From Psammoneis japonica (Eukaryota): 64,000 bases of DNA. Below the pieces are notes generated by a model. The model searched no databases. It was given only the letters and a program-made list of their open reading frames with translations, and had not been told where the DNA came from. This document shows positions 1-41,991 of this stretch, one piece after another. Every line of letters starts with the position of its first letter. Position 1 is the stretch's first letter. The stretch lies in the NCBI GenBank assembly GCA_008632985.1, contig QPGO01000041.1, forward strand, positions 62,001-126,000, written 5' to 3'. The translations under genes were made by a program, and so were the position numbers.

Positions 1-135
1 ATATATGGTATTAATGAATCTATTAGATATAACGGAAGCCGTTGTAACGGGCTTCGCTGAAAGCGACCCTCGTTACCTCGGTCTTTCGCTCACAATTTTG
101 TTATCACTAAAGTCTTTATCTCGTTAGACCTTGCA
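1..135 (+). repeat. 5' LTR of Gypsy copy 1 (partial)
   Basis: Near-identical to 5223-5357; ends CCTTGCA. Confidence 0.95.
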
Positions 136-164
136 CTGTAATTACAGTCGATTCAAAGAACTGG

Positions 165-380
165 ATGGAGACTAGGAACAATACAAACAAATTGACTAAA
201 CGTGAGAAAAGAGAACTGCGCGCAAGAGCAGCAGTTTGGGCCATTGAGCACCAGAAACAAGTGCAACAGCGCAAACGACACGAGCAGAATTTGGCGAGCC
301 GAGTGCATCATTTGGAGTCAAAGGTAGAGTCCCTGGAAAGGACTATTGAACAATTGTATTCCCTTTTTCATGATGAGTGA
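165..380 (+). CDS. 71-aa upstream ORF of Gypsy element, basic region + leucine-zipper-like heptads
   Basis: Conserved in copy 2 (10344-10559). L-x6-L-x6-L-x6-L. Stop lies just past the gag ATG at 370. Confidence 0.55.
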   Translation: METRNNTNKLTKREKRELRARAAVWAIEHQKQVQQRKRHEQNLASRVHHLESKVESLERTIEQLYSLFHDE

Positions 381-1590
381 ATCGTTGAAGGAGCCTTGCA
401 TCAGCTGTGAAGCTAAATTTGAGCATTCTGACTTGGAGGACATGAAATTGACCCAATCGCATGATGACGGTAGCACTCGTACAAAAAAGTGTCCGCGTTT
501 TGATGGCACTCATGGTGTTGAAGCATTGTTATTCGTTGAGGATCGTTTTCGTAAAATTGCTGTGAAACTGGAGCACACTGCTGGCGAGGAGTTGTTCGAA
601 AATTTCGAGGAAGTGCTCACGGATGCGGCAGAGGACAAATGGGCGAATTTGACCAATGCAATTGACGATGCCGATAAAACTGTCGAGCGTTTTGATCAGG
701 AAATCAATCGTTTTTACTTGTCTTATTGTGACAATGAAGCGCGTGATACGATGATTGAATGTTTGCCAACTTTGAAAAAACCATTCAAATCTGAAGTGCA
801 GGCGCGCGCGGATCGCATGGAAACCTTGATTCGGTGCTCCAACAAACTTCCGGGAAATGCTCCTCAAGTCAACGAAGCTCAGAAGAAAAAGATGACATTT
901 GACAGCTTCCCTCGTCCGTGGCGTGAGATGTGTGCTCGAGCAGGACGAGCGACAGCGAATGACACTCTCGCTGAGATCATCAGTTGCGTGAACAATGAGA
1001 AATCTTTTGCTGACAAGAGCAGCAACAAGAAGCAGGACAAGAAGAGGAAAGACAGTGGTGCTTCGTCTCAAGCTTCAAGACGCTCTCGTGGCAACAGTGG
1101 CAGAACGGATCCAGAATCTAGATGCCCGGTGCACGCAAATCACGACCACAAGTGGAAGGACCGCACTTTGAATCCAGAAAGCCAAAACTGTCGGCCGAGG
1201 TCCAACCGTGGCGGTCATGGCGGAGGCCGTGGTGGAGGCCGAGGAAACTGCCAAGGCAGAGGACCCCAAGGTCGAGGCGGTCGTGGCAACTTCCAAGGTC
1301 GAGGACGTGGCAATTGTGGCAATCAAGGAGGATGTGGAGGCCGAGGTTATGGCAACCACAACAACTCCCAGAATTCTCAAGGGAATGGATCCCATTGTCA
1401 AAATCAAAACGGCACCCAAGCCAACGGTGATGCCCAAGGCTGTGGAAATCCGGCTGGAGCAGCTCCTCCTGGTGGCTGGCAAATGGAGTCGCACCATTTT
1501 GATCAAGGAGGGCCTCGTGAGATGCGAGGTGGAAATGGATGCGATCAGAACGGTCGTGCCCATCAAGGCCAACGAAGTTGGCGCAATTGA
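370..1590 (+). CDS. gag: Gag-like protein (capsid-like region, CxxH-x3-H knuckle remnant, RGG/GN-rich tail), TpA-mutated
   Basis: First long ORF after the LTR; CPVHANHDHKW motif; RGG repeats; paralogous to 9134-10354. Confidence 0.8.
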   Translation: MMSESLKEPCISCEAKFEHSDLEDMKLTQSHDDGSTRTKKCPRFDGTHGVEALLFVEDRFRKIAVKLEHTAGEELFENFEEVLTDAAEDKWANLTNAIDDADKTVERFDQEINRFYLSYCDNEARDTMIECLPTLKKPFKSEVQARADRMETLIRCSNKLPGNAPQVNEAQKKKMTFDSFPRPWREMCARAGRATANDTLAEIISCVNNEKSFADKSSNKKQDKKRKDSGASSQASRRSRGNSGRTDPESRCPVHANHDHKWKDRTLNPESQNCRPRSNRGGHGGGRGGGRGNCQGRGPQGRGGRGNFQGRGRGNCGNQGGCGGRGYGNHNNSQNSQGNGSHCQNQNGTQANGDAQGCGNPAGAAPPGGWQMESHHFDQGGPREMRGGNGCDQNGRAHQGQRSWRN

Positions 1591-4500
1591 CAAGGGACGG
1601 AAGCGCCCGAGTCAGAGCGTGTCGCTCAATCTTTTTATGTTTGTGTGATTGTGAAGAAAACACATGTTTTAATGTTGATGACAATGTGGGAGACCTGATG
1701 GAATCTTGTGCTGTGAATGAAGAAAAATTGGGCGGCGTTTTGGAGTGCGCTGCACCAACCCCTAAAACTGCGACTCCCAAACCATTGAGTGTGGTGCCAA
1801 TGACGTTGATGGCGGCGCGCACCATTCAAAATCAAGAGAGCAAGCGAGTGTCACGCGTGCCATTGGATTCAGGAGGTGCTGACACTCTTGTTCATTCTCG
1901 AGTTTTGCCGAAGGGAGCGAATCCGACCATGAACGATGAAGGATGGTTGAGCTTTCAGATGGCAGCCGGACGACATGAATCCTCCCGACACGTTGTCATG
2001 AAGGACTTGACATTGCCAGAATTTGACAAGTCAAAACAAGTCGACAGCATTGCGGCTCAAGTTTTTGACACCCCATGCAAGTGTGACTCAATTTTGGGAC
2101 AAGACTTTTTGTCGAAGGCCGGAATCGTGCTTGATTTTCGATTTGGAATGACAAAGTGGTTGGGAACGTCGATCCCAATGAAGCAATCCAATCATTGGAA
2201 CTCAGTTCAGAATTGGTTGGATGCACTGGAAGACGACGGAGAGGACGAAGACGATGAGGAAGCCTTCGGACAATCTTTTATGATGGACGCCAAATGCGAG
2301 AAAGCATCATCCGCGAAAGTGGCGCAAGCTCAAACTCACTTAACTCAAGAACAACGTGATGAGCTGCAGGCAGTGCTTGAAAAGCATGAAACCCTCTTTG
2401 ATGGAACGCTTGGCAAATGTCCGCATGAGACTGTTCACTTGGAAGTTGATCCCAACGCTGTCCCCTTCCATTCTAAGGCTTGTGAGGTGTCCAAGAGGGA
2501 TGAAGCCGTTTTTAAGAAAGAACTGCAGCATTCATGTGACATTGGCACACTGGAACCAGTGGGACCAACTGAATGGGCAGCCGGAACTTTTGCAACTCCC
2601 AAAAAGGATGGACGAGTTCGATGGGCATCGATTTTCGAGAGTTGAACAAGGTGCTCAAGCGAATGGTCCATCCTCTGCCGATCATTCAAGACGTCATTCA
2701 CCGACGCTCGGGATGCAAGTGCTTGACCAAATTGGACCTCACTGTGTTTTATCATCATGTCGAACTTGACGAAGAATCCAAGGATTTGTGTGCCATCGTT
2801 GCTCCGTTTGGAAAATTTGATGCTGTCGATTGGCCATGGGTTTGAAACCCTCTCCCGACATTGCTCAAGCCATCATTGAAAAAGTGGCAAACGGAATCGA
2901 TGTTGAAACTTACATCGATGATGTTGCTCAATTTGATGATTCGTTTGATGCTCACATGCATCGACTCAATGAGCTGTTGTCCAGACTAGAAGAGAACAAC
3001 CTGAAAATTAACCCATTCAAGTGCAAATGGTGTGTCCAAGAGACGGATTTTTTAGGCCATTGGCTCACGCCTGCAGGAGTCCGACCGTGGAAGAAGAAAG
3101 TGGAAGCGGTGCTACGAATGCAACCACCTAAAACTGTGACGCAATTACGATCGTTCATCGGTGCGGCAACTCATTGTCGCAACATGTGGCCTTGTCGCTC
3201 ACACGTGCTCGCTCCACTCACGAAGTTAACAGGCAAGAGCAAGTTGGAATGGACCCCTGAATGTCAACGAGCCTTTGAAGATGTGAAAACCTTGATGCTG
3301 GACGACACCCTTTGGGTCTACCCGGATCACAACAAACCATTCCATGTTCACACTGACTCTTTGGACTGTCAGATGGGAGCCGCAATTGTGCAAGACGGGA
3401 AACCAGTGGCTTGCTGGTCCCGAAAACTCAGCGCAGCACAACAGAACCACTCTACGATTGAAAAGGAATTGTTGGCGGTGGTGGTGTGTTTCAAAGAATT
3501 TCGGAGCATGTCATTCGGAGCTGACTGCACTGTTTTTACAGATCATAAAAATCTCACCTTTCGCACGCTCAATTCTCAATGAGTTCTTAGGTGGCGACTC
3601 TTCTTGGAAGATTTTGCCCCAACTTTCGAATGCGTTGATGGCAAAGACAACCTCTTGGCGGATTGTTTTTCAAGATTGCCGCGTGTGGACCCTCCTGCGG
3701 AAGGGAAGTGTGCTCCCAACAAGGGCAAACTGATTGATTTTAAGGCGATCGACCCTGCCATGCTGCCGCATGAAGAAGAGCTGGACGACCAAAACCGTGT
3801 GTCTCATTTTTCCTGTCGTCGTGAAGAACCATCTCCATTTCACTCTTCTGTCGTGGACGACCCCGAATTGCATGAATCATTTTTGAACTGTCCTTCTCTC
3901 GAGGAAATGCAAAACCCTGCAACTGTGCAACGAATTCAAGAATGCCAATTCATCGACGTGGAGCTGAACAACATGCGACAACAACATCCAGAACGCTTCG
4001 TGGTGAAACATGTGAATCAGCGTCCTGTAATTTGTCATCGTGCTCGACCGAATGATCCTCCGACTGCGTGGAAAATTTGTGTTCCAACGGCGTTGCTGCG
4101 TGATGTCATGCGATGGCATCATGGAATTTTGGGACATGCAGGAGTGCACCGAATGCATTCCACCATTGGCGCACATTTCCATCATCCTGCCCTTCGTCAA
4201 TCCTGTGAAGGATTTCATTGTGCTGATTGTCAACGTTTGAAAACTTTGGGCCCTGGACATGGGGACCTGCCTGAACGAGAAGCGCCTTTGTTGCCATGGA
4301 CGGAAGTTGCGGTTGATCTCATCGGTCCCTGGAAGATTGAAACTCAAAACCATGAAATCGAATTCAACGCTTTGACTTGCATTGATGCCGTTTCGAATGT
4401 GACTGAACTCATTTGCATCGAAAACAAAACCTCGTCTCACATTGCCCAACAATTTGAAAATTGTTGGTTGTCTCGTTGTCCTCGTCCCAACCGTTGCATC

Positions 4501-5082
4501 CATGACAATGGTGGAGAATTCATTGGAGAGGACTTCCAATTGCCATTGCAACAAGCGGGAGTGGAAGACGCTCTGACCACGTCGCGAAATCCACAAGCCA
4601 ATGCGGCATGCGAGCGCATGCATCAAACTGTTGGAAACATCTTGCGCACTTTGCTTCATGTTTGTCCTCCACAGAATGTTGAGCAGGCCAATCAACTGGT
4701 GGACAATGCATTGGCAACCGCCATGCATGCAATGCGATGTGCAGTTTCTCGTGCTCTCAAGATTTCACCCGGTGCCATGGTTTTTCAACGTGATGTGATT
4801 CTTGACTTGCCGGTCCCAGCCGATCTTGCCACCATTCAAGAACACCGACAAGCGATTGTCAATGCGAATCTCCGTCGAGCCAACGCCAAACGCCAATCCT
4901 GCGATTTTCAAGTTGGTGGACACGTTCTACTCAAGTCTGTCGATCCCACCAAGCTCAAACCACGAGCTCACGGTCCACATCCTGTCGTTCAAGTGCACGC
5001 TGACGGTGCGATTACGGTCCAACATGCACCTCATGTGACAGAACGATTGAACATTCGTCGCGTCGCACCGCATCGTACCTGA
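1591..5082 (+). pseudogene. pol: Pol polyprotein (PR-RT-RNaseH-IN), disrupted
   Basis: LDSGG, TPKKDGRVR, TYIDD, FLGHW, EKELLA, VDLIGPW, HDNGGEF, NPQANA-ERMH motifs. Frameshifts near 1640, 2630 and 2820. CGA->TGA stop at 3580-3582 relative to copy 2. Confidence 0.93.
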
Positions 5083-5195
5083 GGTTGAGGGTTTTCTCCC
5101 CAACATTTGGGTTTCCCTTCTATCCTCATCCATTGGAATTTGAAAATTTTTGAGTCCCGCATGATTCTCGACACTCGAATCATGGAAGGGAAGAG

Positions 5196-5357
5196 TGCAG
5201 TGTCTCGCACCCTATTTTTCTGATATATAGTATTAATGAACCTATTAGATATAACGGAAGCCGTTGTAACGGGCTTCGCTGAAAGCGACCCTCATTACCT
5301 CGGTCTTTCGCTCACAATTTTGTTGTCACCAAAGTCTTTGTCTCGTTGGACCTTGCA
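5196..5357 (+). repeat. 3' LTR of Gypsy copy 1 (162 bp)
   Basis: TGCAGTGT...CCTTGCA, preceded by the PPT. Confidence 0.95.
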
Positions 5358-5362
5358 AAACC

Positions 5363-5524
5363 TGCAAGGTCTGACGAGATGAAGACTTCAGTGATGACAA
5401 AATTGTGAGCGAAAGACCGAGGTAACGAGGGTTGCTTTCAGCGAAGCCCGTTGCAACGGCTTCCGTCACATCCAACAGGTTCATTAATGCTGTGTGTCAG
5501 AAAAACAAGGTGCGAGACACTGCA
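5363..5524 (-). repeat. 3' LTR of Gypsy copy 2 (heavily TpA-mutated)
   Basis: Aligns without gaps to 10589-10750; PPT complement CTCTTCCCTTCC follows at 5525. Confidence 0.95.
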
Positions 5525-5636
5525 CTCTTCCCTTCCATGATTCGAGTGTCGAGAATCATGCGGGACTCAAAAAATTTAAATTCCAATGGATGAGGATAGA
5601 AGGGAAACCCAAATGTTGGGGAGAAAACCCTTGACC

Positions 5637-8600
5637 TCAGGTGTGATGCGGTGCGACGCGGCGTACATTCAATCGTTCTGTCACATGAGGTGTGCGTTGG
5701 ACCGCAAGCGCACCGTTGGCATGCACTTGAACGACAGGACATGGACCGTGAGCTCGTGGCTCGAGCTTGGTTGGGTCGACAGCCTTGAGCAGAACTTGTC
5801 CGCCAACTTGAAAATCGCAGGATTGGCGTTTGGCGTTGGCTCGATGGAGATTCGCATTGACAATCGCTTGTCGGTGTTCTTGAATGGTGGCAAGATCGGC
5901 TAGGACCGGCAAGTCAAGAATCATGTCACGTTGAAAAACCACAGCACCGGGTGAAATCTTGAGAGCACAAGAAACCGCACATCGCATTGCATGCATGGCG
6001 GTTGCCAATGCATTGTCCACTGGTTGATTGGCCTGCTCAACATTCTGTGGAGGATAAACATGAAGCAAAGTGCGCAAGACATTTCCAACAGTTTGATGCA
6101 TGCGCTCGCATGCCGCATTGGCTTGTGGATTTCGCGACGCAGTCGGAGCGTCTTCCACTCCTGCTTGTTGCAATGACAATTGAAAGTCCTCTCCAATGAA
6201 TTCTCCACCATTGTCATGGACACACAGGTCAGGACGAGGATGACGAGACAACCAACAATTTTCAAATTGTTGAGCAATGTGAGACGAGGTTTTGTTGTCA
6301 ATGCGAATGAGTTCAGTCACATTCGAAATGGCGTCAATGCAAGTCAAAGCGTTGAATTCGATTTCATGGTTTTGAGTTTCAATTTTCCAGGGACCGATGA
6401 GGTCAACTGCAACTTCCGTCCATGGCAATGAAGGCGCTTCCCGTTCAGGCAGGTCCCCACATCCAGGGCCTAAAGTTTTCAAACGTTGACAATCAGCACA
6501 ATGAAATCTTTCACAGGATTGACGAAGGGCAGGATGATGGAAATGTGTGCCAACAGTGGAATGCATTCGGTGCACTCCTGCATGTCCCAAAATCCCCTGA
6601 TGCCATCGTATGATGTCATGCAGCAACGCCGTTGGAACACAAATTTTCCACGCAGTTGGAGGATCATTCGGTCGAGCACGACAACAAATTACAGGACGCT
6701 GATTTACACATTCCACAACGAAGCGTTCTGGATGTTGTTGTCGCATGTTGCTCAGCTCCACGTCGACGAATTGGCACTCTTGAATTCGTTGCACAGTTGC
6801 AGGGTTTTGCATTTCCTCGAGAGAAGGACAGTTCAAAAATGATTCACACAATTCGGGGTCGTCCACGACAGAAGAGTAAAATGGAGATGGTTCTTCACGA
6901 CGACAGGAAAAATGAGACACGCGGTTTTGGTCGTCCAGTTCTTCTTCATGCGGCAGCATGGCAGGGTCGATCGCCTTAAAAGTCAATCAGCTTGCCCTTG
7001 TTGGGGAGCACACTTCCCTTCCGCAGGAGGGTCCATGCGCGGCAATCTTGAAAAACAATCCGCCAAGAGATTGTCTTTGCCATCAACGCATTCGAAAGTT
7101 GGGGCAAAATCTTCCAAGAAGAGTCGCCACCTAAGAACTCGTTGAGAATTGAGCGTGCGAAAGGTGAGATTTTTATGATCCGTAAAAACAGTGCAGTCAG
7201 CTCCAAATGACATGCTTCGAAATTCTTTGAAACACATTGCCACCGCCAATGATTCTTTTTCAATCGTAGAGCAGTTCTGTTGTGCTGCGCTGAGTTTCTG
7301 GGACCAGCAAGCCACTGGTTTCCCATCTTGCATGATTGCGGCTCCCATCTGACAGTCCGAAGAGTCAGTGCAAATGTGGAATGGCTTGTCATGATTCGGG
7401 TGGACCCAAAGGGTGTCGTCCAGCATCAAGGTTTTCACATCTTCAAAGGCTCGTTGACATTCAGGGGTCCATTCCAACTTGCTCTTGCCTGTCAACTTCG
7501 TGAGTGGAGCAAGCACGTGTGAGCGACGAGGCCACATGTTGCGACAATGAGTCACCGCACCGACAAACGATCGCAGTTGCGTCATGGTTTTAGGTGGTTG
7601 CATTCGCAGCACCGCTTCCACTTTCTTCTTCCACGGTCGGACTCCTGCAGGCGTGAGCCAATGGCCCAAAAAATCCGTCTCTTGGACACACCATTCGCAC
7701 TTGAGTGGGTTAATTTTCAGATTGTTCTCTTCTAGTCTGGATGACAGCTCATCGAGTCGACGCATGTGAGTTTCAAACGAATCATCAAATTGAGCAATGT
7801 CATCGATGTAAGTTTCAACATCGATTCCTTTTGCCACTTTTTCAATGATGGCTTGAGCAATGTCGGGAGAGGTTTTCAAACCCATGGCCAATCGACAACA
7901 TCGAAATTTTCCAAACGGAGTGACAACAGCACACAAATCCTTGGATTCTTCGTCAAGTTCGACATGATGATAAAACACAGTGAGGTCCAACTTGGTCAAG
8001 CACTTGCATCCTGAGCGTCGGTGAATGACGTCTTGAATGATCGGCAGAGGACAGACCTTTCGTTTGAGCACCTTGTTCAACTCTCGAAAATCGGATGCCC
8101 ATCGAACTCGTCCATCCTTTTTGGGAGTTACAAAAGTTCCGGCTGCCCATTCAGTTGGTCCCACTGGTTCCAGTGCGCCAACATTACACAGATGTTGCAG
8201 TTCTTTCTTAAAAACGGCTTCATCCCTCTTGGATGCTTCGCAAGCCTTAGAATGGAAGGGAACAGCATTGGGGTCAACTTCCAAGTGAACAGTCTCATGC
8301 GGATGTTTGCCAAGCATTCCATCAAAGAGGGTTTCATGCTTTTCAAGCACAGCCTGCAGCTCATCACGTTGTTCTTGAGTTAAGTGAGTTTGAGCTTGCG
8401 CCACTTTCGCGGATGATGCTTTCTCGTATTTGGCGTCCATCATAAAAGATTGTCCGAAGGCTTCCTCATCGTCTTTGTCCTCTCCGTCGTCTTCCAGTGC
8501 ATCCAACCAATTCTGAACTGAGTTCCAATGATTGGATTGCTTCATTGGGATCGACGTTTCCAACCACTTTGTTGTTCCAAATCGAAAATCAAGCACGATT

Positions 8601-9133
8601 CCGGCTTTCGGCAAAAAGTCTTGTCCCAAAATTAAATCACACTTGCATGGGGCATCAAAAACTTGAGCCGCAATGCTGTCGACTTGTTTTGACTTGTCAA
8701 ATTCTGGCAATGTCAAGTCCTTCACAACAACGCATCGGGAGGATTCATGTCGTCCGGCTGCCGTCTGAAAGCTCAACCATCCTTCATTGTTCATGGTTGG
8801 ATTCGCTCCCTTCGGCAAAACTCGAGAATGAACAAGAGTGTCAGTGCCTCCTGAATCCAACAACACTCGCAACACTCGCTCACTCTCTTGATTTTGAATG
8901 GTGCGCGCCGCCATCAACGTCATTGGCACCACATTCAATGGTTCAGGAGTCGCAGTTTTAGGGGTTGGTGCAGCGCACTCCAAAACGCCGCCCAATTTTT
9001 CTTCATTCACAGCATGAGATTCCATCAGGTCTCCCACATTGTCATCAACATTAAAACACATGTTTTCTTCACGATCACGCGAAACATAAAAAGATTGAGC
9101 GACACGCTCTGACTCGGGCACTTCCGTCCCTTG
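5637..9133 (-). pseudogene. pol: Pol polyprotein of copy 2 (PR-RT-RNaseH-IN), one frameshift near 7000
   Basis: 712-aa and 449-aa ORFs with LLDSGG, DFRELN, YIDD, FTDHKNL, ADCFSRL, integrase core and a GPY-derived GPC. Confidence 0.93.
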
Positions 9134-10354
9134 TCAATTGCGCCAACTTCGTTGGCCTTGATGGGCACGACCGTTCTGATCGCACCCATTTCCACCTCGC
9201 ATCTCACGAGGCCCTCCTTGATCAAAATGGCGCGACTCCATTTGCCAGCCACCAGGAGGAGCTGCTCCAGCCGGATTTCCATGGCCTTGGGCATCACCGT
9301 TGGCTTGGGTGCCATTTTGATTTTGGCAATGGGATCCATTCCCTTGAGAATTCTGGGAGTCATTACAACTGCCGTAACCTCGGCCTCCACATCCTCCTTG
9401 ATTGCCACAAATGCCACGTCCTCGACCTTGGAAGTTGCCACGACCGCCTCGACCTTGGGGTCCTCTGCCTTGGCAGTTTCCTCGGCCTCCACCACGACCT
9501 CCGCTGCTGCCGCCACGGTCGGACCTCGGTCGATGGTTTTGGCTTTCTGGATTCAAAATGCAATCCTCCCACTTGTGGTCATGATTCGCATGCACCGGGC
9601 ATCCAGATTCTGGATCCGTTCCACCACTGTTGCCACGAGAGCGTCTTGAAGCTTGAGACGAAGCACCATTGCTTTTCCTCTTCTTGTCCTGCTTCTTGTT
9701 GCTGCTCTTGTCAGCAAAAGATTTCTCGTTGTTCACATGACTGATGATCTCAGCGAGAGTGTCGTTCGCTGTCGCTCGTCCTGCTCGAGTGTGCATCTCA
9801 TGCCACGGACGAGGAAAGCCATCGAATGTCATCTTTTTCTTCTGAGCTTCGTTGACTTGAGGAGCATTTCCTGGAAGTTTGTTGGAGTGCCGAATCAAGG
9901 TTTCCATGCGATCTGCATGCGCCTGTGCTTCAGATTTGAATGGTTTTTTCAAAGTCAGCAAACATTCAATCATCATATCACGCGCTTCATTGTCACAATA
10001 AGACAAGTAAAAACGATTGATTTCCTGATCAAAACGCTCGACAGTTTTATCGGCATCGTCAATTGCATTGGTCAAGTTCGCCCACTTGTCCTCTGCAGCA
10101 TCCGCAAGCACTTCCTCGAAATTTTCGAACAACTCCTCGCCAGCAGTGTACTCCAATTTCACAGCAATTTTACGAAAATGATCCTCAACAAATAACAATG
10201 CTTCAATGCCATGAGTGCCATCAAAACGCGGACACTTTTTTGTACGAGCACTGCCGTCATCATGCGATTGGGTCAGTTTCACTTCCTCCAAGTCAGAATG
10301 CTCAAATTTAGCTTCACAGCTAATGCAAGGCTCCTTCAACGATTCACTCATCAT
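9134..10354 (-). CDS. gag: Gag-like protein of copy 2
   Basis: Near-identical to 370-1590. Confidence 0.8.
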   Translation of the reverse strand: MMSESLKEPCISCEAKFEHSDLEEVKLTQSHDDGSARTKKCPRFDGTHGIEALLFVEDHFRKIAVKLEYTAGEELFENFEEVLADAAEDKWANLTNAIDDADKTVERFDQEINRFYLSYCDNEARDMMIECLLTLKKPFKSEAQAHADRMETLIRHSNKLPGNAPQVNEAQKKKMTFDGFPRPWHEMHTRAGRATANDTLAEIISHVNNEKSFADKSSNKKQDKKRKSNGASSQASRRSRGNSGGTDPESGCPVHANHDHKWEDCILNPESQNHRPRSDRGGSSGGRGGGRGNCQGRGPQGRGGRGNFQGRGRGICGNQGGCGGRGYGSCNDSQNSQGNGSHCQNQNGTQANGDAQGHGNPAGAAPPGGWQMESRHFDQGGPREMRGGNGCDQNGRAHQGQRSWRN

Positions 10355-10559
10355 GAAAAAGGGAATACAATTGTTCAATAGTCCTCTCCAGGGACTCTAC
10401 CTTTGACTCCAAATGATGCACTCGGCTCACCAAATTCTGTTCGTGTCGTTTACGTTGTTGCACTTGTTTCTGGTGCTCAACAGCCCAAACTGCTGCTCTT
10501 GCGCGTAGTTCTCTTTTCTCACGTTTAGTCAATTTGTTTGTATTGTTCCTAGTCTCCAT
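10344..10559 (-). CDS. 71-aa upstream ORF of copy 2
   Basis: Two amino-acid differences from 165-380. Confidence 0.55.
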   Translation of the reverse strand: METRNNTNKLTKREKRELRARAAVWAVEHQKQVQQRKRHEQNLVSRVHHLESKVESLERTIEQLYSLFHDE

Positions 10560-10588
10560 CCAGTTCTTTGAATCGACTGTAATTACAG

Positions 10589-10750
10589 TGCAAGGTCTAA
10601 CGAGATAAAGACTTCAGTGATAACAAAATTGTGAGCGAAAGACCGAGGTAACGAGGGTCGCTTTCAGCGAAGCCCGTTACAACGGCTTCCGTTATATCTA
10701 ATAGGTTCATTTATACTATATATCAGAAAAATAAGGTGCGAGACACTGCA
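10589..10750 (-). repeat. 5' LTR of Gypsy copy 2 (least mutated LTR)
   Basis: Retains TA-rich tract TTATATCTAATAGG...ATACTATATATC. Confidence 0.95.
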
Positions 10751-10887
10751 AAACCGCTCACACATTTTGCATCGCCGATCGCCGATCATGCCCAGAACAA
10801 AGTCAAGTCAAAGCAATGGCGAACCAATAGGCAGTATTCCCCTCCATTACATAGCAACGCTTAGGCTTTCAATCCCACAAAGTAACA

Positions 10888-11888
10888 ATGTTCATGCAAG
10901 GAAGTTTAACAACGAACAGGTTGCGAAAAGTTGGCTTTCATTTTCTACACAGTAATCGCTTTGCTTTGTCGACAATAATACGGCGTTCCAAAAGCATTCA
11001 AGCCGGTGGATTTGCTTGGCCACTTGCTTCCAAGGCACACAAGGGTGGCGAGGACGCATTTTTCATTCAAATAGATCGAGAGAATTATGAAATTGATCCA
11101 TCGACGACTGGAGCACAGAGACGTCTTGTTTGCGGTGTAGCGGATGGAGTTGGTGGGTCAAAACAACCCGACGTCTATGCTAATGCGCTCATGGAGTCTT
11201 GCAAGGCATTTGCTCGTGACAATCCGAGTGTACTGAATCCAAAAGAAATCCTGCAAGGAGTCTGGGAAGCTAACTCGGCATTACGGGATGGAACGATTGA
11301 TGGCAGTAGCACTGCTTGTTTGGTGTCGTTGGTTTTGCAAGAGAACTACAATCTCGAACTTCACTGTGCCAATGTGGGAGATAGTGGCTTTGTCATGATT
11401 CGTAAGAATCAAGGACTGTATCGATCCAAGCCTCAGTTACACGGACCCAACACGCCCTTTCAATTGGGACCGAATTCCGATACCCCAGCCGCTGCCGACG
11501 AAACCTCTGTTTTGTTGGAACCAGGTGACGTGATTGCCGTTTGCACCGATGGTATATTTGACAATTTGTTTTTGAATCACGTATCGCTCATTCTCCACGG
11601 GCTCAAAAAGGTACAAGAAGCCATTACGTGGCTTGAACAACAGCAAAATCAGCAAGACCCCACACCCTTGCAACAGGCAGCCAGTTTCCAAATTCCCGTA
11701 CCGGTACCGGGAAGTCGACAAGAGGGGACCCAGAATGTGTACAAGTGGCGCAAACATTATGTGCTCATGCCAAAGCAATATATCAATCCGAAAAATATTG
11801 CATGACGCCTTTTGATGCGGAGCAATTTCATTACTCTCCTGGTGGCGGGAAAATGGACGATGCCACGGCCGTGGTGATTCAAGTCTAG
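10888..11888 (+). CDS. Protein phosphatase 2C, PTC7-like
   Basis: GEDAFF, VADGVGG, GSSTAC, NVGDSGF, TPFQLG, TDGIFDNLF. The C-terminal TPF...GGKMDDATAVV* lies in another frame ending 11888 (indel or small intron near 11650-11730). Confidence 0.85.
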
Positions 11889-18229: not shown

Positions 18230-21200
18230 GGCAGCGAGGTGTCCGTTGGGACATATGGACAATCTGGGAGACCCAGACTCCCCTCTTCAGTAGAACAAGA
18301 GGTTCTCTTTGTGCACTCTACCAGCAACACCAGCAGCTACCTGCGACAGTTTGTTTTCTTGATTGACAAGTTTAACCGAGTCAGGAGCAAAATTTCTTTG
18401 AGCTCTTGCCACCAGAGGCAGCCATGTGGAACACGCCATTGATTGACAATTGTTTTTGGTGGTTGGTTCAAATGGCATTGCAGCAGCCATTTCAGCTGTG
18501 TGTTGAACTTTTTTTTTTGTTCTCATCTTGGAGGGTGCACCACTCCAACTTTCATTGCAGACCATTTCCCATTGAAGCTCATGTGTGAGAGGCCATCTGA
18601 TTCCAGTGCTGCAGGTTCCAGATGTGACTTTTCCCTGGCTGGGCCCAGGCTCTGGGGTGTCAGACCCTCAAATTTGGGGGCACATGCCCCAGCAGTTGCA
18701 GCTCTGCTGCCAAGAAGACAATTTGGCACAACACACAACATGAAAATTGAAACATTTGCCTTGAGTCCAGAGATGCCTTGCAAACAGCAGGGGTGCTTGT
18801 GAGCAAATCTCAGTCAAACAACTCAGCTTTGCTGTGGCATGCAGATGACTTTAAGTCTTCCCCCCCTGCTGTTGCTGCTGCTGAAAAACACAACTTTGCT
18901 CCACCATGGCAAATGAACTGCAATGGCAGTGATGCTTGCACCACCTTGTGTGAAACACGTGCAGTTGCTGCACCTTGTGTGCTTTCAAGTGACAAAAAAT
19001 GGCAGGTTGTCAAAAGTTGCATTGTGGAAAATGTGGTGCTGGCTTGTCTCTGGGAAAATGAAATCATGTGAACAGAGAATCACACAAATTTTCTGTTGGC
19101 TTGCACTTTGGATCACATGCAATTGATTGCACTGCAGTTTCTTTCACCCCATTTGCTTGTCACCACATGCATGGGTGCAAGTGGCACACTTTTGTTGTGG
19201 ATTGTCACACTGTTTGTGCTGATGGCCTGTCAACTCATGTGCCACATGCACAGATGCTCACTTCTAAAATGCCTCTGAGTTGCCAAGCAACAGCCTCCCC
19301 CACCTGTGCCTGTGCAGCATGTGCTGAAACTGTGCAGTGTGCACACACCTGGGATTTGTGCAGCTTTGCTTTGTTGCTGGCAGCACAGAACATGCTGCAT
19401 TGCAACAACGCAACAAAAACAAAAGAAAGAGCAGGCTCCTTCCTGGCAACACAAGCAGCCAATTCACAGCTGATTTTGGGAAAAGTTTTGCAACAAGTTG
19501 GCAGCAAACATCATGCCTTGAGCCTGACCCACACTGCATTTGACAATCTGTGCTTGCTGTGTTGTGGTCTGGTTGGGCCAAGTGTTGGCAGCTGCTGTGC
19601 ACCAGCCATGAGCCTTGGCAGTTGACCCCAGCACATGCTGCATCATGGTTGTCATGGTTGACAACATCAAGGTTGGTGAAAGCACATTCTTGCATGTGAG
19701 CGCACAAAACCAAACAGAAAAAACAATTTTCTCAATGGACAAAACAGAGAGCAATTTTTCTCACAATGAACCCCAGCTTTGGCAACTTGTGTCATAAAAA
19801 AAGGCTGATTAAAGGCTGGTTCCAACTCCAGATGTCATGCATGGGCCCATTTTGTGTTTGACAAAGCAAGCTCCTTCAATTTTGTAACTTTCCCAAATTG
19901 AAGGGCAAGCAGTGCACACAAAGCCTTGCTTTGTTCATGTGCTCTTGCCTTTGACCTTGGAAAAACCCAAAATTGAAGGAGCTCATTGTGCCAAATGTGA
20001 CATGGCATCAGTTGACAATGTTGGTTGATGTGATCTGCACATTTTGACTTCAGAGACCAACCTCAGCCCCCATGTGTGGTGTTTTTGCCCATGCTCTTGC
20101 ACTGATGTTGCCCTTTCTCAGACGGCATTTTGCTGGGTCTCACAAGACCATTCTGACCATTTCAGCATGATGTCAAGCAATGTTTCTAAGCAGTGGAAAA
20201 TTGCTGGCATTGACTCCTTGTGGTTTGCATGCTGATTGATCTTTTTTGCAATTTCCTGCAACTCAACAAATTTTCTGCATGGATTCCAGGACAAATTCTG
20301 TGTGCTTCAATGCTTTGTCAAATCTCTGAGCCACTCACACCCATGCCCATCTGCCCTCAACATCTCATTCTTTGTTCCCATTGGCCAATCAAGTCCTTCA
20401 CTCTGTTGGGTGAACGCACTGCCTCTGTTGTGGCACTGATGAGCATGAGAATGAGCCCCCCTTTGGCACCAATTGACAATCCTCCATTTGCTGCATGCAC
20501 CAGCATTTCCATGCAAGATCTGGCACATGGTTTCTGCTTGTGAAACATGTTTTTTCCAATGACCGACTTGTCACATCATCAAGCACTCCCATTTTTTGTC
20601 TCCCAGTCCTGGACAACCCTTTCCTCACTTGCCAGCAAATCAAGCTCCCTGTTCTTTGCAGTGATCTTTCCACCATTGTTCCATTGCTTGGAGGTGTGAA
20701 AGTGCCCCCCTTTTTGATGACAGAGCCAGCAGCTTGGCAATCATGTTTTGATCTCATTTCTTTTGCTGTTCTTAAACCAAGCTCTGGAAGCAATTGTTCT
20801 TGGCCATTGTGACATGGCAGCCACATGTTTCCAGCCCATGCAAAAGCAGCAAACTCTGCAATGTGTTCTCAGATGTTCCCCAGTTGCCTCAGTTGGTCTT
20901 TGCTGCAAGGTGGCACCAACCTTGGCCAGTCTGTGTCCCTTTCTGCTGTGCTCATTTTGTGTGCTGGAAGTGTGGGTGGCTGGTGCCAGCATGTCTGGCA
21001 AAGGAGCAATGGCACTTGCAAATTAGATCTGGTTTGATGGTTGATGTGATCTGCAGTGCAAGAACAGACATTGCACAATGTGAGATGGCTCCTGAGCAGA
21101 GTGCCAGGTGCAATTGATCGTTGCTGTTTTTGTGTGTCATGTGTCACAACAAACAGAAGCCATGGGGCATTTGCTGGCAGCAGAGTGAAGGCCAAGGCAA

Positions 21201-23400
21201 AAGTGAGACTGTGTGTGGCCAATGAAAAAAATGGCAGATTGAACAGCCCCATTTGTTCTTCCTTTTAACACGCCTCATGGTGTGCAGAGTGCAGTGGATT
21301 GTTTTGTCATTCTTGTGAGCCAGCAGTCACACAAATGCAAGCCACAAAAGGGCTCTGGAGCAAAGGCTGGCACACAAAAGTGGAGCTGTGCATGAGCAAT
21401 GTCAGCTTGACTGACTCAGTGAAAAGTTTGTCCTCCCCTCTGATGTGCTGTGGGTGGTGTTGCAGTGCTTCTCCAAGTGCCATTTTTTAAACCCCATTTT
21501 TCATTCTGCCTGTCATCCCAACTCATCAACAGCGCCAATGGGGTTGACTCACTCTGTTGAAATTTGGGGCTTTCAGTCAACTGGTGGAGGGTTTGACAAG
21601 CAACCATCAGGTTTGGTTCCTTAAACTGGCTCATGTTAAAAAGCTGCAGACGGAGAAGTTTTTTCCAATTCAACAAATCCACCCTGCACACCCATCACAT
21701 GATCCAGAGGCATTGCAGTGACAAGCTGTGGACCACCAACATTGTTGTGGCAGCCATGCTTGTGGCTCCAGAGGGGGATCAACAGAGTGCCAAGACATGG
21801 TCACTTTTCAGCCCTGATTCTTCATGACTCATTGAGTCAACTTGACCATTCTTGGAGTCAACTCAATCTTTTGTCATTCACAAGTTGCAAATGAAATGTG
21901 ACTTTGCTGCACTCCACCATTGCTCTTGCTGCTGCACTCTGAAAGGGGTCCAATCGACCACAACGGGTGGCCCAAGTCAGCTGAGCATGTTTCAATGACT
22001 CTTCCTTTGTGTGCCCAAGGACTCATCAAGGACAATTGGTTCCTTGGATGCAATGTGTTGCCTGTGAAAGTCACTTTGCCCATTGCCCCTGCTTTCCTGG
22101 TGCTCCAAAAAAAAAAAAACAAGGAAAACCTGCTCAAGGGTTTCCCTTGACTGTCCATTTCACAAAACCCAAAACAGTTTTTGACTCTTTCCAAAAAACA
22201 TGGAGCTTTTGAGCTTTAAAATCCAGCCCTGTTTCATCATTTGAATGTTGCATTGGTGACAGAAGTGCCACAAGCTTTGCAGTTTGTTGTTGCTTGTGAG
22301 GCAAAAGATTGCCATCAGATGGCATTTTTTCACCACTGGGGCCTTTGTTGGTGTTGTCTGAAGCCTCCAAACTGATTTTGATCAAATTTGATTGTCCCAA
22401 TGCAAGCTTGAGCTCCTCAGCCACAGAGTTGAGGTTTTCTAGATCACCATGGCAAAACTCTTCCCTGAGGGGAGATCCATTTGCTCAAATGCATCTGCTT
22501 GCCTGGCACTTCAGCTTTCTGCCCATTTCTTTCAACCAGCTTGTTGCATGGTCTGTGTGTTTGTCTTTAATCTGTGCTGCCAGCTTGGCTTGGACAAGGT
22601 TGGTTGCTTTTTGTTTGTCCACATGATGTGTGCACACTCATTTGAAGCCTGTTTTTCCAGGAAAGAAATGTTGGGCAGGGCTGATTTTTCACTGTTGACA
22701 TCTCAGCTTGGAATGTCTTTTTCATTTCATGACATTGGGCAACAACTTGGCACTTTTTTCATGTGCTGCCGGCACCTCCTCCTTGTTTGCATCAACAACC
22801 ACCCATGCAAGGACATCCCAAGCTCTGTTTGGGTCTGAGTGTCTTTGAACCAGAGCTCATTCATGAGTGCTGTTTTGTGCCACCACTGTTTTGAGTGTGT
22901 GTTTTGCAGTCTTTTTGTTGCCGTCGGCTTTGGCGCCAAGCGGAAGAGACAAAAATCTGGCACAGCACTTTTCAGCACACCAGCAACAGAAGCACCAGAA
23001 TCATGCCATTTGCTTGTGCATGTCACAGCTCAGCCGCCAACCCAAGAGCAAGGTGACACTCACAGGGCTGTCTCCATCAATTGAATTGTCTTCGTCAACA
23101 CATTGTGAGACATGGTCACACTTCAAAGGTGCGCGGTGCTGCCCAGCACAAAATTCCAATTGACAGCAGTGTCGCCATCACAGTTGCACACCAGTTTGAT
23201 GAAATTTCTTTGCAACATGCCATGGCAAAAAGCAGATGCTGACTGGTGCAAATTCAACATCAGCAGATTTTTTTTTGTGCCACTTGAGTGCTGGCACCCA
23301 CAGCTGCTGAGTCCCTCAGCTCTCAGCAGCCATCAAATCAACAATGTCTTCAATTTTTTTGTTGGTTGTCTCATTTTTCCACTTTTTTGTGGTGACGGTG
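18230..23400 (-). mobile_element. Highly decayed repeat relic, almost devoid of TpA and CpG; possibly Ty1/copia (CoDi-like)
   Basis: No coherent ORF. Faint GA(N/K)GG and INQ(Y/H)A-like traces on the minus strand near 20100-20500. Composition sharply differs from flanking genes. Confidence 0.35.
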
Positions 23401-25709: not shown

Positions 25710-26019
25710 ACAAGTTAATTAGAATTTTTTAGCAATGAAGTCATGTCAGTTTCTTGTTCCTGGTGCTGCAATGAATTCTACAAGCTCTCTTTCTTTTTGC
25801 ACTGTGAATTTTAAAAACCAAGTTTCTTGTGATGTGTGCCAAGAGCTGCCGGTGCTGTGAATGATGGAAGCCATGTGATTCCCCCACAAACTGAATGTCC
25901 AACACCACTTGAAGAGACAAGTGGATGCATCATGTGATGCCAAGGATGATCACAAACAAGGTTGCTTCTTGTTGACTCTTTGCAACTTTTGCCAAGCTTT
26001 TGTGCATGTGACGCATGTG

Positions 26020-27020
26020 TCAATTGGGTCATTTTGTGAGTTGCTCCAATCAAACAACGCCGTTGTTGGAATCATGGCTTCCTTGAACATCTTGAGCATG
26101 CACTCTGCTGCAGCATGGAATTGTGCAACCAGTTGCAGACACAAGACAGCCCCAACATGCAAGTTGCAGATGGCGCAACTTGCAGCTCAACCACCATCCA
26201 GAGAGAGCAGGAGCTCACAATTGTGCTGCCACTGGCTTCTGTTGTTAGAGCTCAGGGGTGCAACCCCCCCCACACACACACACACATGGCTGCTGGAATG
26301 TCAGACATGTGTGGTGAGAGCAGCGGCAACTTTGGCTTTTGGGATGAACAGTCTAGATTCTGCACTGTCATGTCACATTGTTGCAAAGCTGATCAGTTTG
26401 AGTGGCACCAAAGGCTGCCAACAGATCGAACACTTTTCCAATGCTGTGGCAGGTTGAGAAAAGCTCCATTTTGCTTTTCTGAATCTGCGACCTTTTGCCA
26501 GCACAGCTCTCTTTTGTTTTCTTCCTTGTTCCAGCACACTCACAAGCAAGAGTGTCGGAGACTCAAAAAAGAATGATGCCCCACATGTTGACAGCATTGC
26601 AGAAGAAATGGTCACATGCCATCCAAAACAAGGCATTGAGCCAGGAAAATGCACCCAAGCCAACAGCTCTGGCTGTTGCAAATGTGCCTTCCTCAGTCAA
26701 GTGCAAGGACAGCATCAAGCGGAAATGTTTTAGAAGGCAAAAAAATGATTTGAAGGATGTGATTGGGTTTCAAGAGCCAAGAACAACAAAGCAAGAAAGA
26801 GGCAATGCAACAAAATGTCAAGTGCAAAACACCCTGCCAGTGAAGCATGCATTGCAAGCTGCTGTGATCAATGGCCAACTGGAAAAGCCCGCCAGCAATG
26901 AGGCAATGACAATTTCTTGTTCCTGATGCTGCAACAAATTCCACAAAAGCTTTTTCTTTTTGCGCTGTGAATTTCACAAACCAAGTTTCTTGTGATGTGT
27001 GCCAAGGGCTGCCAGTGAGC
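26020..27020 (+). pseudogene. Decayed tandem duplicate of the 3' half (with introns and 3' flank) of the upstream metalloprotease gene
   Basis: Colinear with about 24850-25860, e.g. catgtactcggccgtagcatgg vs catgcactctgctgcagcatgg. Confidence 0.9.
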
Positions 27021-28582
27021 TGTGCAGTCATGCAGGCATGCATGTGCTCAACATTTTTTGGTCATTGCCCATGATGACCACCATGCCACATGACGAGATG
27101 CTCCATTGAATGAGAGCGGTGGTGCTTCCAAATGAGACTGCCTTGCCAAAATTGTGGTGCCTTCAGACAATCCTCTGTTAAATTGCCGTTGGACATGTTT
27201 GTTTCAAGGGTGGTGAACCACATGCTTCTCACTCACCATCATCTGACCATCTCCTTGTTCATGCCACCTCCCACCACATTGATTGCATCCACACCTGACA
27301 CAGCATCAATGTTCAAATGATGCTTCCCAAAGGTGCAAATTTTACATCCAACATGTCCTCACTCTCCAGGTGGCTCAACAAAACCAAGGGCATGCCACAT
27401 CTCAGCATCAAAGATCTCTAAAAAATGTTCTTGTTGTTCCTGCTGGGCTTTGAGTCAGAGCAACATTTGAACAACTCACAAACTTGTTCTGTGCACAAGC
27501 AAAAATGTCCAGCTGAGAAATGCACAACAGCATTGTGGCATGTTCTGCATCATTTTGTGGGTGTGAATTTCAAACAATCACCTTTTTCAACAGACAAACA
27601 CACTCTTCTTTAACCTCTTCTGAAAGTCTGCATCAATTTGATTGAGCTCAGCACCCAAGCAATGTGTTTGCTGCTCTTTGGTCTTTCAACCACACAGAAG
27701 AGTGGGCACATGCTCACATCACTTGCTTGCCATGTTGCACAAAAGGCACCTCTTAGCACACATGTCTCTGGTGGTGTCTTGAGAGCATGTGTCAGAACAC
27801 TCGAATTTTGTCCTGTGTGGTGGTGCACGGCAAACAGGCTTGAGATTGTGGTGTCAGAGGCGAGCAGCATGATGCAGAACAATGGCGTGCTGTGGTTGTT
27901 CATGAAAATGGTTGTGAAACTTGCCATGAGCTGATCTCACCCTGACAAGGCCAACAATCTTCATGAACAAAGTGTTTCTGAGAATCTTTTTCTGCCAGAA
28001 AATCAAACACAAAGCTTGCGCTTTTCTGCCCAAACATTGTGGTCTCACTTTTCTAGAGTCATTGGAACTCAGGCAATTGTTGGTGTTGGCAACAAAGCAA
28101 AAGCCAAAGCAACATCTTGTTCTCTTGTGCACTGAGCGAGGGAGTCTCTCTTTCTCACCACACACCCTCCACAATGAAGTGCCATGCTGTCTGCCACACA
28201 AAAGTCTGTGTTGTTGCTCTCCAACAAATTTGCAAACTTCTGTTTTTTCCATGTCATCATGGAGATTGTGCAGCAACAGGAATGGGATGTTCTCCCCCAG
28301 AGACATCTTGAGAAATTCTTGGGCTCTTTGTCCAGGCGGGGCAGCACGTTGCTGGGCCTGGCCAATTCTTCCAATTCGAGTGGTTGAAGTGTTCATCTAT
28401 GAGGCCAGAGCAAAACTGAGCGACCGTCTGGCATGCGCCATGCGCCATGCGGCTGCGATCTTTTTTCGCGATTTGGGTGCGGATTTTCCCGGCACAGGCA
28501 GCGCATGCAACAAGGCAACAGGCAACAATAAAAGCGAAAGCATCAGAGCCATCGTGCAGTCGAGAGTAGACCGGATCATCTG

Positions 28583-41860: not shown

Positions 41861-41991
41861 TGCTCACACTTTTTTTGTCGAGAACAGCACGTGCAACACA
41901 CTTCCAGCAGTTACGAAATCTGTTCGTGTTCAAACCAATCAGCATCATTTGAGGATGAGATTCTTGTGGGGCCCTTTTCATTCCCCCCCCT

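Follow-up and report, generated by a model that had tools for sequence, protein, structure and literature searches.

The first 10.75 kb of a 64-kb window of contig QPGO01000041.1 from the diatom Psammoneis japonica form a near-perfect palindrome, with arms at 1-5357 (+) and 5363-10750 (-) that are 89-95% alike throughout. The palindrome is a pair of tail-to-tail copies of a Ty3/Gypsy long terminal repeat (LTR) retrotransposon at 1-10750, followed by a target-site duplication at 10751-10755. It extends beyond the interval 346..10378 that the sequence-only reading of this DNA had delimited, and the 5' LTR of copy 1 is truncated by the window start. Here, we describe the loss of the dinucleotide TpA (TA) from both copies. 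Confinement was read within the window, which is the whole stretch of DNA analysed.

The hallmarks of Ty3/Gypsy elements are present in the pair (Table 1). These are LTRs of 162 nt with the ends TGCAG...TTGCA, the 5-mer AAACC flanking copy 2, and a polypurine tract (PPT, GGAAGGGAAGAG) abutting both 3' LTRs. The gag gene comprises 420 codons and ends in TGA, after which protease, RVT_1, RT_RNaseH, Integrase_H2C2 and rve follow in the same frame. The Pfam matches are arranged as Asp_protease_2, RVT_1, RT_RNaseH_2/RT_RNaseH, Integrase_H2C2 and rve, which is the order protease (PR), reverse transcriptase (RT), RNase H (RH) and integrase (IN). The rve scores of 24.8 and 26.2 bits are under the Pfam cut-off of 32.6, and the same applies to the intact relatives P0003 and P0004 (27.1 and 28.3). 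As AAACC lies on both sides of copy 2, this copy has a normal 5-nt target-site duplication. The same 5-mer also stands immediately 3' of the 3' LTR of copy 1. The tail-to-tail layout resulted either from two integrations at exactly one target or from a fold-back duplication with its junction at the LTR end. Comparison of the element with the rest of the window by blastn and tblastn gave no further element copies and no in-window outgroup.

Both copies are strongly depleted in TA. The observed/expected ratio (o/e) of TA is 0.20 and 0.19 in the copies, and that of CG is 0.94 and 0.90. As a baseline, 78 related metagenome loci were fetched from the best 80 of 452 confirmed. These loci are ranked by protein similarity, which favours unmutated relatives, and they are hence a baseline and not a survey. 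Their TA o/e ranges from 0.45 to 1.08 with a median of 0.73. In terms of density, the element bodies contain 7.1 TA per kb versus 55.8 per kb in the 78 relatives, so that about 87% of the TA is gone.

The global alignment of the two copies has 5358 columns with 338 mismatches (93.7% identity), among them 316 transitions, and six one-base gaps. The most common difference is a double one, with TG in one copy and CA in the other. It occurs at 72 sites, with TG in copy 1 at 34 and in copy 2 at 38. When the copy differences were permuted in 1000 rounds with the transitions per base held constant, such sites numbered 3.15 on average and 9 at most. The two senses of these sites are intermixed (runs test z = 0.26), and there are no long-range strand runs. 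At short range, the direction of neighbouring sites is inconsistent, being the same in 23/35 pairs within 10 nt and in 14/47 at 11-30 nt. Among the other differences at pyrimidine-purine steps, 67 are CG versus TG or CA (35 + 32) and 37 are TA versus TG or CA. The steps identical in both copies are 50 TA, 250 CG, 429 TG and 356 CA. Outside CpG and TpA, just 78 differences are found in the 5358 columns, and the copies were thus near-identical at their separation.

For the ancestral states, Pol homologs were collected by a database search with the 716-codon Pol frame of copy 2, which gave 553 matches at E <= 1e-10. The best 120 of the 553 were used (identity 43-63%), one of them labelled by its source as Cyclotella meneghiniana. 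P0053 was left out of the columns, leaving 119. A separate search gave 18 Gag homologs, all of which are included in the Cys/His position counts, and P0135 was dropped in the later Gag analyses. P0053 (751 aa, Pol-related, 50% identity) and P0135 (391 aa, Gag-related, 33% identity) are database proteins that are poor in Tyr (0.8% and 0.3%, respectively) and rich in Cys and His; P0053 contains 3.6% of each of the latter.

The sequence-only reading had quoted ten peptide pairs in which the copies differ at a Cys, His or Tyr, and all ten were found at homologous places in both copies (Table 1). Over 1588 codons, read in the frames of copy 2, there are 18 Cys/His, 3 His/Tyr, 2 Cys/Tyr, 9 His/Arg and 6 Cys/Arg pairs. 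The copies contain 7 and 10 Tyr codons (0.4 and 0.6%), 62 and 60 Cys codons, and 68 and 65 His codons. The 119 Pol homologs contain 2.6-4.7% Tyr, 0.8-2.8% Cys and 1.6-4.2% His. Reciprocal pairs also derive from other TA codons, namely Met/Thr (5, from ATA), Leu/Ser (7, TTA), Leu/Pro (5, CTA) and Ala/Val (6, GTA). The target is the dinucleotide TpA and not tyrosine, as Leu, Ile and Val codons and the non-coding LTRs are also changed.

The same reading had taken Tyr as the ancestral residue at the Cys/His sites, and the homologs agree with it. Tyr is the most common residue at 12/18 positions in the 119 Pol and 18 Gag homologs. In Pol/Int, it leads at 8/12 positions (112/119, 113/119, 97/119, 118/118, 55/98, 83/98, 95/96, 54/83), and in Gag at 4/6 (15/18, 9/18, 12/18, 12/17). 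The remaining six positions, four of them in Pol/Int, are variable or thinly aligned columns. Arg (CGN), the residue expected under plain CpG decay, leads at none of the 18, neither in Pol/Int nor in Gag. As the homologs have Tyr and not Arg, the ancestral codon was TAY and not CGN. In the 34 columns with at least 60% Tyr, the 68 codons of the two copies encode Cys (31), His (21), Tyr (10), Phe (4) and Trp (2). In control columns conserved to at least 70%, Arg is kept in 29/32 codons, Cys in 8/8, His in 14/16, Phe in 18/22 and Trp in 14/14. None of the 68 Tyr-column codons stands at CGY (Arg), and a TpA site is thus immune after one hit. Neither a sense-strand bias (Cys 31 versus His 21 plus Met 2 versus Thr 2, binomial p = 0.23) nor a difference in outcome between TAT and TAC codons (Fisher p = 0.13) was established. 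In the conserved motifs, the Tyr of 'YIDD' in RT is retained in both copies, and the Tyr of 'NY[ST]' in RNase H and of 'GPY/F' in integrase is lost in both.

Opposite products at one site need two events, which upholds the proposal that the copies were mutated independently. In columns with at least 70% Tyr in which both copies are changed, 14 changed in the same way (Cys/Cys 10, His/His 4) and 8 in opposite ways. Independence predicts 10.2 of the 22 to be opposite, with Cys making up 64% of the outcomes. These numbers fit hits that are mostly independent between the copies and would allow about a fifth of them to be shared or biased by site.

At integration, an element has two identical LTRs, as follows from the established scheme of LTR replication. 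A change private to one LTR thus arose after integration, in chromosomal DNA. The alignment of the four LTRs (162 nt) has 23 singleton columns, which comprise 9 TA>TG, 9 TA>CA, 2 CG>CA and 3 other changes. No change from TG or CA to TA is found among them. One further column is split two against two. The singleton changes number 14 in the 3' LTR of copy 2, 6 in the 3' LTR of copy 1, 2 in the 5' LTR of copy 1 and 1 in the 5' LTR of copy 2. The four-LTR comparison hence fixes the polarity from TA to TG or CA without any protein alignment. The TpA process acted on the DNA after integration.

The reading frames fit a further point of the sequence-only reading, namely that the process disables proteins by missense changes and not by stops. 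A>G or T>C at TpA turns no sense codon into a stop, as TAA can become only TGA or CAA, and TAG only TGG or CAG. All four in-frame stops of the reference frames are TGA. The Gag/Pol TGA lies at 1588-1590 in copy 1 and 9134-9136 in copy 2, with Gag and Pol in one frame, and the TGA at the end of Pol lies at 5080-5082 and 5637-5639, respectively. Over the three sense frames, TGA is more frequent than TAA+TAG, with 144 versus 34 occurrences in copy 1 and 147 versus 36 in copy 2. As TAA>TGA is an allowed change, the original stop codons are unreadable from these copies. Copy 1 has the only premature stop, a TGA at 3580 that results from CpG decay, as copy 2 has CGA there. As the process makes no stops, long open frames of up to 716 codons persist.

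The frames are otherwise broken by six 1-nt indels. Copy 1 has gaps after 1642, 2628 and 2818, and in copy 2 an extra C at 7006 and at 6982 shifts the frame between RNase H and integrase. At each of the five coding indels, copy 2 has a C that copy 1 lacks (9081, 8094, 7903, 7006 and 6982 in copy 2; after 1642, 2628, 2818, 3714 and 3737 in copy 1), and in three of the five, this C is directly 5' of G. From the frames, copy 1 seems to have lost a base at three of the coding indels and copy 2 to have gained one at the other two; an assembly error is possible. As the sixth indel, copy 1 has an additional G at 5142. The Pfam domains are still recognised, with modest score losses compared with the closest intact relatives P0003 and P0004. 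RT_RNaseH_2 scores 87-89 bits versus 107-108, RT_RNaseH 78-83 versus 101-105, and RVT_1 78.6 versus 77-85.

Two processes are overlaid in the pair, a near-saturating loss of TA (A:T to G:C) and a much slower ordinary CpG decay (G:C to A:T). The CpG decay, which is opposite in GC direction, explains the Arg/Cys and Arg/His differences and the premature stop. Where Arg/Cys and Arg/His pairs fall in conserved columns, the homologs most often have Arg (71/119, 77/96, 59/86, 47/83). Fourteen isolated non-synonymous changes could be polarised, and these are CG>TG/CA (9), TA>TG/CA (3), CT>TT (1) and a transversion (1), with no CA>CG. About 13% of the TA remains versus about 88% of the CG, which corresponds to a roughly 15-fold faster loss of TA per site.

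Table 1 Features of the retrotransposon pair and positions of the ten peptide pairs
Feature	Position	Strand	Remarks
Copy 1 5' LTR	1..135	+	~27 nt missing at window edge; direct repeat 1-135 / 5223-5357, 95%; TA nearly all kept
Copy 1 internal region	136..5195	+	Leader/primer-binding site (PBS) side, gag ~370-1590 (TGA end), PR-RT-RNase H-integrase; from open reading frames (ORFs) and Pfam
Copy 1 PPT	5184-5195	+	PPT and PBS-side sequence same in both copies
Copy 1 hypermutated tract	767..5091	+	Nearly all recognisable ancestral TA now TG/CA; TA o/e 0.0-0.18
Copy 1 3' LTR	5196..5357	+	TGCAG...TTGCA, 162 nt; majority of TA kept; singleton changes 6 (4 TA>TG/CA)
Spacer AAACC	5358..5362	.	5 nt separating the two 3' LTRs; also the left-hand target-site duplication of copy 2
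Copy 2 3' LTR	5363..5524	-	Highest load of the four LTRs, with 14 singleton changes (13 TA>TG/CA)
Copy 2 internal region	5525..10588	-	gag 10396-9134 (TGA end, in frame with pol); PR-RT-RNase H 9133-6983, 716 open codons; integrase 6986-5637
Copy 2 hypermutated tract	5371..9957	-	Sense ~767 to 5352; outer edge at same internal position as that of copy 1
Copy 2 5' LTR	10589..10750	-	1 singleton change (transversion); TA kept
Right target-site duplication of copy 2, AAACC	10751-10755	.	Same 5-mer as 5358-5362
QNHST/QNCST (copy 1/copy 2)	3442 / 7279		
SRCPRP/SRHPRP (copy 1/copy 2)	4471 / 6248		
GPHP/GPCP (copy 1/copy 2)	4972 / 5747		
GKCP/GKHP (copy 1/copy 2)	2412 / 8311		
GHG/GCG (copy 1/copy 2)	4255 / 6464		
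EHT/EYT (copy 1/copy 2)	571 / 10153		
AKCEK/AKYEK (copy 1/copy 2)	2289 / 8434		
WVYP/WVHP (copy 1/copy 2)	3313 / 7408		
HVCPP/HVYPP (copy 1/copy 2)	4657 / 6062		
PFHS/PFYS (copy 1/copy 2)	3835 / 6884		

The TA that survives is clustered, with 28 of the 50 shared TA located within the first 800 nt. In both copies, most recognisable TA persists as far as sense ~750, and hardly any escapes conversion from 767 onwards. Over the first 200 nt, the TA o/e is close to 1.0 (0.99 in copy 1), and at 801-1000 it is 0.0. The converted tract spans ~767 to ~9957 through the centre of the pair, with the 3' LTR of copy 1 mostly spared as a pocket. The boundary coordinates for copy 2 were converted from alignment columns and are good to a few nt. 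Within the tract, the TA o/e per 1 kb is 0.03-0.18 versus 0.49-0.85 in the flanking genic DNA at 10 to 13 kb. In this window, the changes of the pair are confined to mobile DNA, and the neighbouring DNA is normal.

The switch from kept to converted TA, at ~750-767 and at ~9957-9975, lies at the same internal position in both copies, at ~760 nt counted from the 5' end. In the 3' LTRs, the corresponding sequence has undergone conversion, to a large extent in copy 2. The position in the element and not the local sequence sets the boundary. The common edge ~760 nt inside each 5' end suggests, speculatively, that a cue intrinsic to the element determines it, for example chromatin near the promoter or targeting linked to transcripts. 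The CpG loss is somewhat lower in the first 800 nt (4/40 versus 63/277, Fisher p = 0.095), which would point in the same direction.

Conversion also depends on the bases that flank TA. Counted as copy-sites in the element bodies, ATAT is converted in 24/24, ATAG in 16/18, ATAC in 14/16, CTAA in 8/18 and TTAA in 4/16 (ATAT versus TTAA, Fisher p = 3e-7). Compared with the 78 related loci, TTAA persists in the element bodies at 0.42 and ATAT at 0. In other TA-poor islands of the window (18.5 kb in total), the survival relative to the genic density is 0.94 for TTAA, 0.26 for CTAA, 0.19 for CTAG, 0.10 for CTAC, 0.09 for GTAA, 0.04 for ATAA and 0 for ATAT. The order of flanking bases in these islands agrees independently with that in the element bodies. 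The gains of product tetranucleotides, which would report the strand hit in each context, are noisy and confounded by CpG decay and adjacent sites.

More TA-poor islands lie at 18500-23000, 26000-28000, 41000-43000, 46000-49000 and 55000-64000, with TA o/e of 0.01-0.2. Several of them also have a CG o/e of 0.04-0.5 and a TG/CA o/e of up to 2.1. A Pfam search with 16 ORFs of the other TA-poor islands gave two chance-level matches only (E = 0.0018 and 0.029), and a Pfam scan at E <= 0.001 gave no match there either. In the islands at 19-23 kb and 26-28 kb, TA is 0.03-0.07 and CG 0.04-0.2. As these older islands lack both TA and CG, the retrotransposon pair represents an early stage of the process.

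Beyond the pair, a PP2C/SpoIIE-like ORF at 10855-11805 (+) begins ~100 nt past the 5' LTR of copy 2 and has a normal TA content. The flanking genes are long, intron-poor ORFs, and a carotenoid-oxygenase ORF lies at 38746-40650. This ORF belongs to clusters in which Bacillariophyta is the most frequent phylum, a lead that agrees with a diatom host. Two N at 50869-50870, in a stretch with normal TA content, are the only ambiguous bases in the window.

Taken together, it is likely that the two sister copies were hypermutated independently at TpA after their insertion (A:T to G:C), with a slower CpG decay superimposed. According to this model, two near-identical Ty3/Gypsy sister copies would have inserted, and each would have been attacked separately, as chromosomal DNA, with the A:T of TpA replaced by G:C. 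With the A of either strand open to attack, TA would become TG or CA, and a single hit would destroy the TpA site and so prevent progress to CG. In each copy, chance would decide whether TAY (Tyr) turned into TGY (Cys) or CAY (His), and the reciprocal Cys/His pairs would result. The process halts sharply ~760 nt inside each outer end and leaves the neighbouring gene untouched. By analogy, the likeliest agent would be a deaminase that acts on adenine in DNA and is steered to silenced or foreign sequence, along the lines suggested for Bigelowiella natans (Mettrop et al. 2026, bioRxiv 10.64898/2026.01.13.699255). The data show the direction from TA, the restriction to TpA, the timing after integration, the independence of the copies, the confinement to the element and the preference for flanking bases; from this pattern, we infer a dedicated, targeted enzyme and a role in genome defence. 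The chances are about even that diatoms hold an active chromatin- or RNA-guided DNA editor that converts TpA to TpG or CpA in new retrotransposons, with ATAT edited most, TTAA least, and the LTR and leader spared by a sharp boundary.

Several points weigh against independent TpA hypermutation after insertion. TA depletion was found in none of the 78 environmental loci, a set picked by protein similarity, which disfavours mutated copies. The process is read entirely from end states in one assembly, and the read-level support possibly comes from the assembly's own sample. At Tyr columns, same-way changes exceed opposite ones (14 to 8); roughly a fifth of the hits may be older than the split between the copies, or individual sites may favour one direction. 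A homogeneous model of independent hits (TA in both copies at 50 sites, in one at 37) predicts ~3 discordant sites and not 72. A fit requires heterogeneity in space and context; both are observed, but they were fitted post hoc. Finally, there are a few A>G changes outside TpA, such as CAT>CGC at Gag codon 160 (His in 17/17 homologs), and also TGC>CGC at codon 279 (Cys in 16/16). Gag codons 160, 279 and 389 (805 and 1162 in copy 1, 9232 in copy 2) have CA>CG or TG>CG at an invariant or near-invariant His or Cys, in one case a zinc-knuckle-like Cys. They may be background transitions or reflect a weak activity of the same process on CpA.

Plain CpG decay would give Cys/His pairs from CGY (Arg), deaminated to TGY in one copy and to CAY in the other. 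CG/TG and CG/CA differences are many (35 + 32), Arg is ancestral at the Arg/Cys and Arg/His pairs, 9/14 isolated polarised changes are CG>TG/CA, and older islands of the window are also CG-poor (CG o/e 0.04-0.2). Nevertheless, this explanation is almost certainly wrong for the Cys/His pairs, at which Arg leads in 0/18 and Tyr in 12. The CG o/e is still 0.90-0.94 while the TA o/e is 0.19-0.20, the LTR changes are 18 of TA type versus 2 of CG type, and from 67 single losses versus 250 kept sites, ~2 oppositely decayed sites are expected and not 72. RNA-level A-to-I editing of transcripts by an ADAR-like enzyme, fixed by reverse transcription, would mean that the copies were born mutated. The inverted copies could yield double-stranded RNA, column 166 of the LTR alignment is common to both LTRs of copy 2 and may predate integration, and the 5' neighbour preference resembles that of ADAR (Mettrop et al. 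2026, Discussion). Edits would enter both LTRs, yet the LTRs of copy 2 differ by 13 TA-type changes. Only A>G in the sense strand is inheritable by this route, yet TA>CA equals TA>TG (9:9 in the LTRs; His 21 versus Cys 31 in the Tyr columns). The one-hit rule (0/68 Tyr codons to Arg) is stricter than a graded neighbour preference, and copies without ~76% of the conserved Tyr could not arise from their own proteins. We therefore give RNA editing very little credence, and the four-LTR comparison excludes it as the main source of the changes.

An adenine deaminase is also to be weighed against a modified thymine at TpA, of the hydroxymethyl-uracil type, that miscodes or is misrepaired to C. In dinoflagellates, hydroxymethyl-uracil occurs preferentially at TpA. 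As TA is self-complementary, the end states of T>C and A>G are alike, and the LTR and context data do not separate them. We regard a modified thymine as unlikely, since the literature considered gave no sign of such a base in diatoms and the only experimental precedent, in the preprint passages considered, proposes an ADAT2-like adenine deaminase, itself a suggestion only. Untargeted damage at TpA, for example by a light-induced lesion, could be repaired in transcribed genes and accumulate in silent transposon chromatin, with no need for a dedicated defence enzyme. The tract avoids the LTR/leader end and the neighbouring gene, and the lower CpG loss in the first 800 nt (p = 0.095) is expected if chromatin sets the boundary. 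Such damage is very unlikely in view of the sharp boundaries and of ~87% of the TA gone versus 78 non-CpG, non-TpA differences in 5358 columns; in B. natans, the signature appeared in laboratory lines, and only in some, which the authors, in these passages, read as regulated. Modified bases can also cause systematic errors in long reads. Systematic base-calling or polishing errors at modified TpA, in a genome that is truly TA, are hardly credible as the source of the pattern. Opposite products occur at the same site in near-identical context (72 sites), the old islands show TA loss together with CpG decay, and Tyr-poor relatives exist in protein databases (P0053, P0135). In addition, contigs of the public run X1, possibly the source of the assembly, reproduce the stretch, with 357/685 contigs at least 99% alike and all 30 bins covered, and its variant contigs carry the states of copy 1 itself. 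The stretch was found in the contigs of one study, in which X1 contains 0.47 of the sampled words of the stretch, and X2 and X3 contain next to none; no RNA run was among the matches. Differences of X1 on copy 2 (5942-5943, 5969, and 1-nt omissions near 7003 and 6982) were considered as polymorphism and rejected, as they are the paralogous states of copy 1.

For annotation, independent TpA hypermutation after insertion has the consequence that dead copies keep open frames and enter databases as Tyr-poor, Cys/His-rich 'proteins' such as P0053 and P0135. Likewise, TA-poor, TG/CA-rich islands are open to being misread as unusual native sequence. The pair provides its own controls, with two sister copies, four LTRs, a target-site duplication and abundant intact relatives. 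If diatoms indeed have a TpA editor, the pair would be a calibrated natural experiment for its rate and rules. Diatoms are ecologically dominant and genetically tractable, so that the enzyme could be sought by knock-out.

Targeted hypermutation against mobile DNA is well established for cytosine, as in fungal repeat-induced point mutation (RIP) and in the action of APOBEC. RIP in Neurospora and other Pezizomycotina changes C>T at CpA and thereby creates TpA and stop codons. Like RIP, the process described here consists of dense, dinucleotide-specific transitions on both strands, and it kills duplicated mobile DNA in place, in sister copies independently, while genes are spared. Unlike RIP, it runs in the opposite direction, with TA lost and TG/CA gained, and creates no stop; the chemistry of RIP was thus not found. 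As for the dependence of RIP on duplication, both members of the pair are mutated, yet in each of them the outermost 760 nt of the duplication escape, a comparison limited to the pair. APOBEC3 and ADAR act on cDNA or RNA during replication, with a single-stranded outcome that is common to both LTRs. APOBEC3-type editing of retroelements was reportedly described by Knisbacher and Levanon in 2015. The loss of TA resembles these systems as a deaminase-type hypermutation with a dinucleotide signature that restricts retroelements. It differs from them in that the changes came after integration, are found on both strands and are not the same in the two LTRs of a copy. Sense A>G alone, the same in both LTRs, as expected of ADAR, was not observed; the ratio is 9:9, and there are 13 TA-type differences in copy 2.

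In diatoms, DNMT4 proteins are related to RID, and their function is not known (Hoguin et al. 2023, PMC9998398). As cytosine enzymes, they do not explain a change of adenine or thymine. The diatom Ty3/gypsy elements GyDi share the PR-RT-RH-IN order with the pair (Maumus et al. 2009, PMC2806351), and the terms 'degenerate' and 'point mutation' have 0 occurrences in the text of that paper. The SPLASH paper (PMC9258296) mentions hypermutation for immunoglobulins only. A full-text literature search found no description of TpA hypermutation in diatoms.

An adenine/thymine counterpart has only just been reported, so far from one unrelated alga and in one preprint. In mutation-accumulation lines of B. 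natans, two integrated viral regions gained 231 new changes, of which 230 were A>G/T>C and located at TpA without exception. The rate was ~1000 times the background, only some lines were affected, and the authors suggested an ADAT2-like adenine deaminase (Mettrop et al. 2026, bioRxiv 10.64898/2026.01.13.699255). As a long-term trace, that genome has clusters in which TpA is scarce and CpA+TpG abundant, and reverse-transcriptase Pfams are enriched among TpA-poor coding sequences. The preprint does not mention diatoms. In the passages considered, there is no preference for flanking bases, no sharp boundary inside an element and no Tyr>Cys/His read-out, although the supplementary tables may hold context. 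Compared with these passages, the LTR-pair proof of post-integration hits, the flanking-base rule and the sharp boundary in both copies are new. The two cases differ in host, a diatom (Stramenopila) versus a chlorarachniophyte (Rhizaria), and in target, an LTR retrotransposon pair versus giant-virus/virophage DNA. The depletion is far deeper here (TA o/e 0.03-0.18 versus a Rho of 0.45 in the viral region of B. natans), and end states are seen here, whereas real-time events were followed there. In both, the changes are almost only A>G/T>C at TpA, give TpG or CpA depending on the strand, and are confined to foreign or mobile DNA. Every sequence-testable feature of the B. natans hypermutation, as given in these passages, was found in the pair. 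The same signature, much more deeply engraved, in a diatom would mean that the process is more ancient or more broadly distributed than assumed. Were diatoms and Bigelowiella to share one system, this would be an ancient means of genome defence in the SAR supergroup and, with its A:T>G:C changes, the mirror image of fungal RIP.

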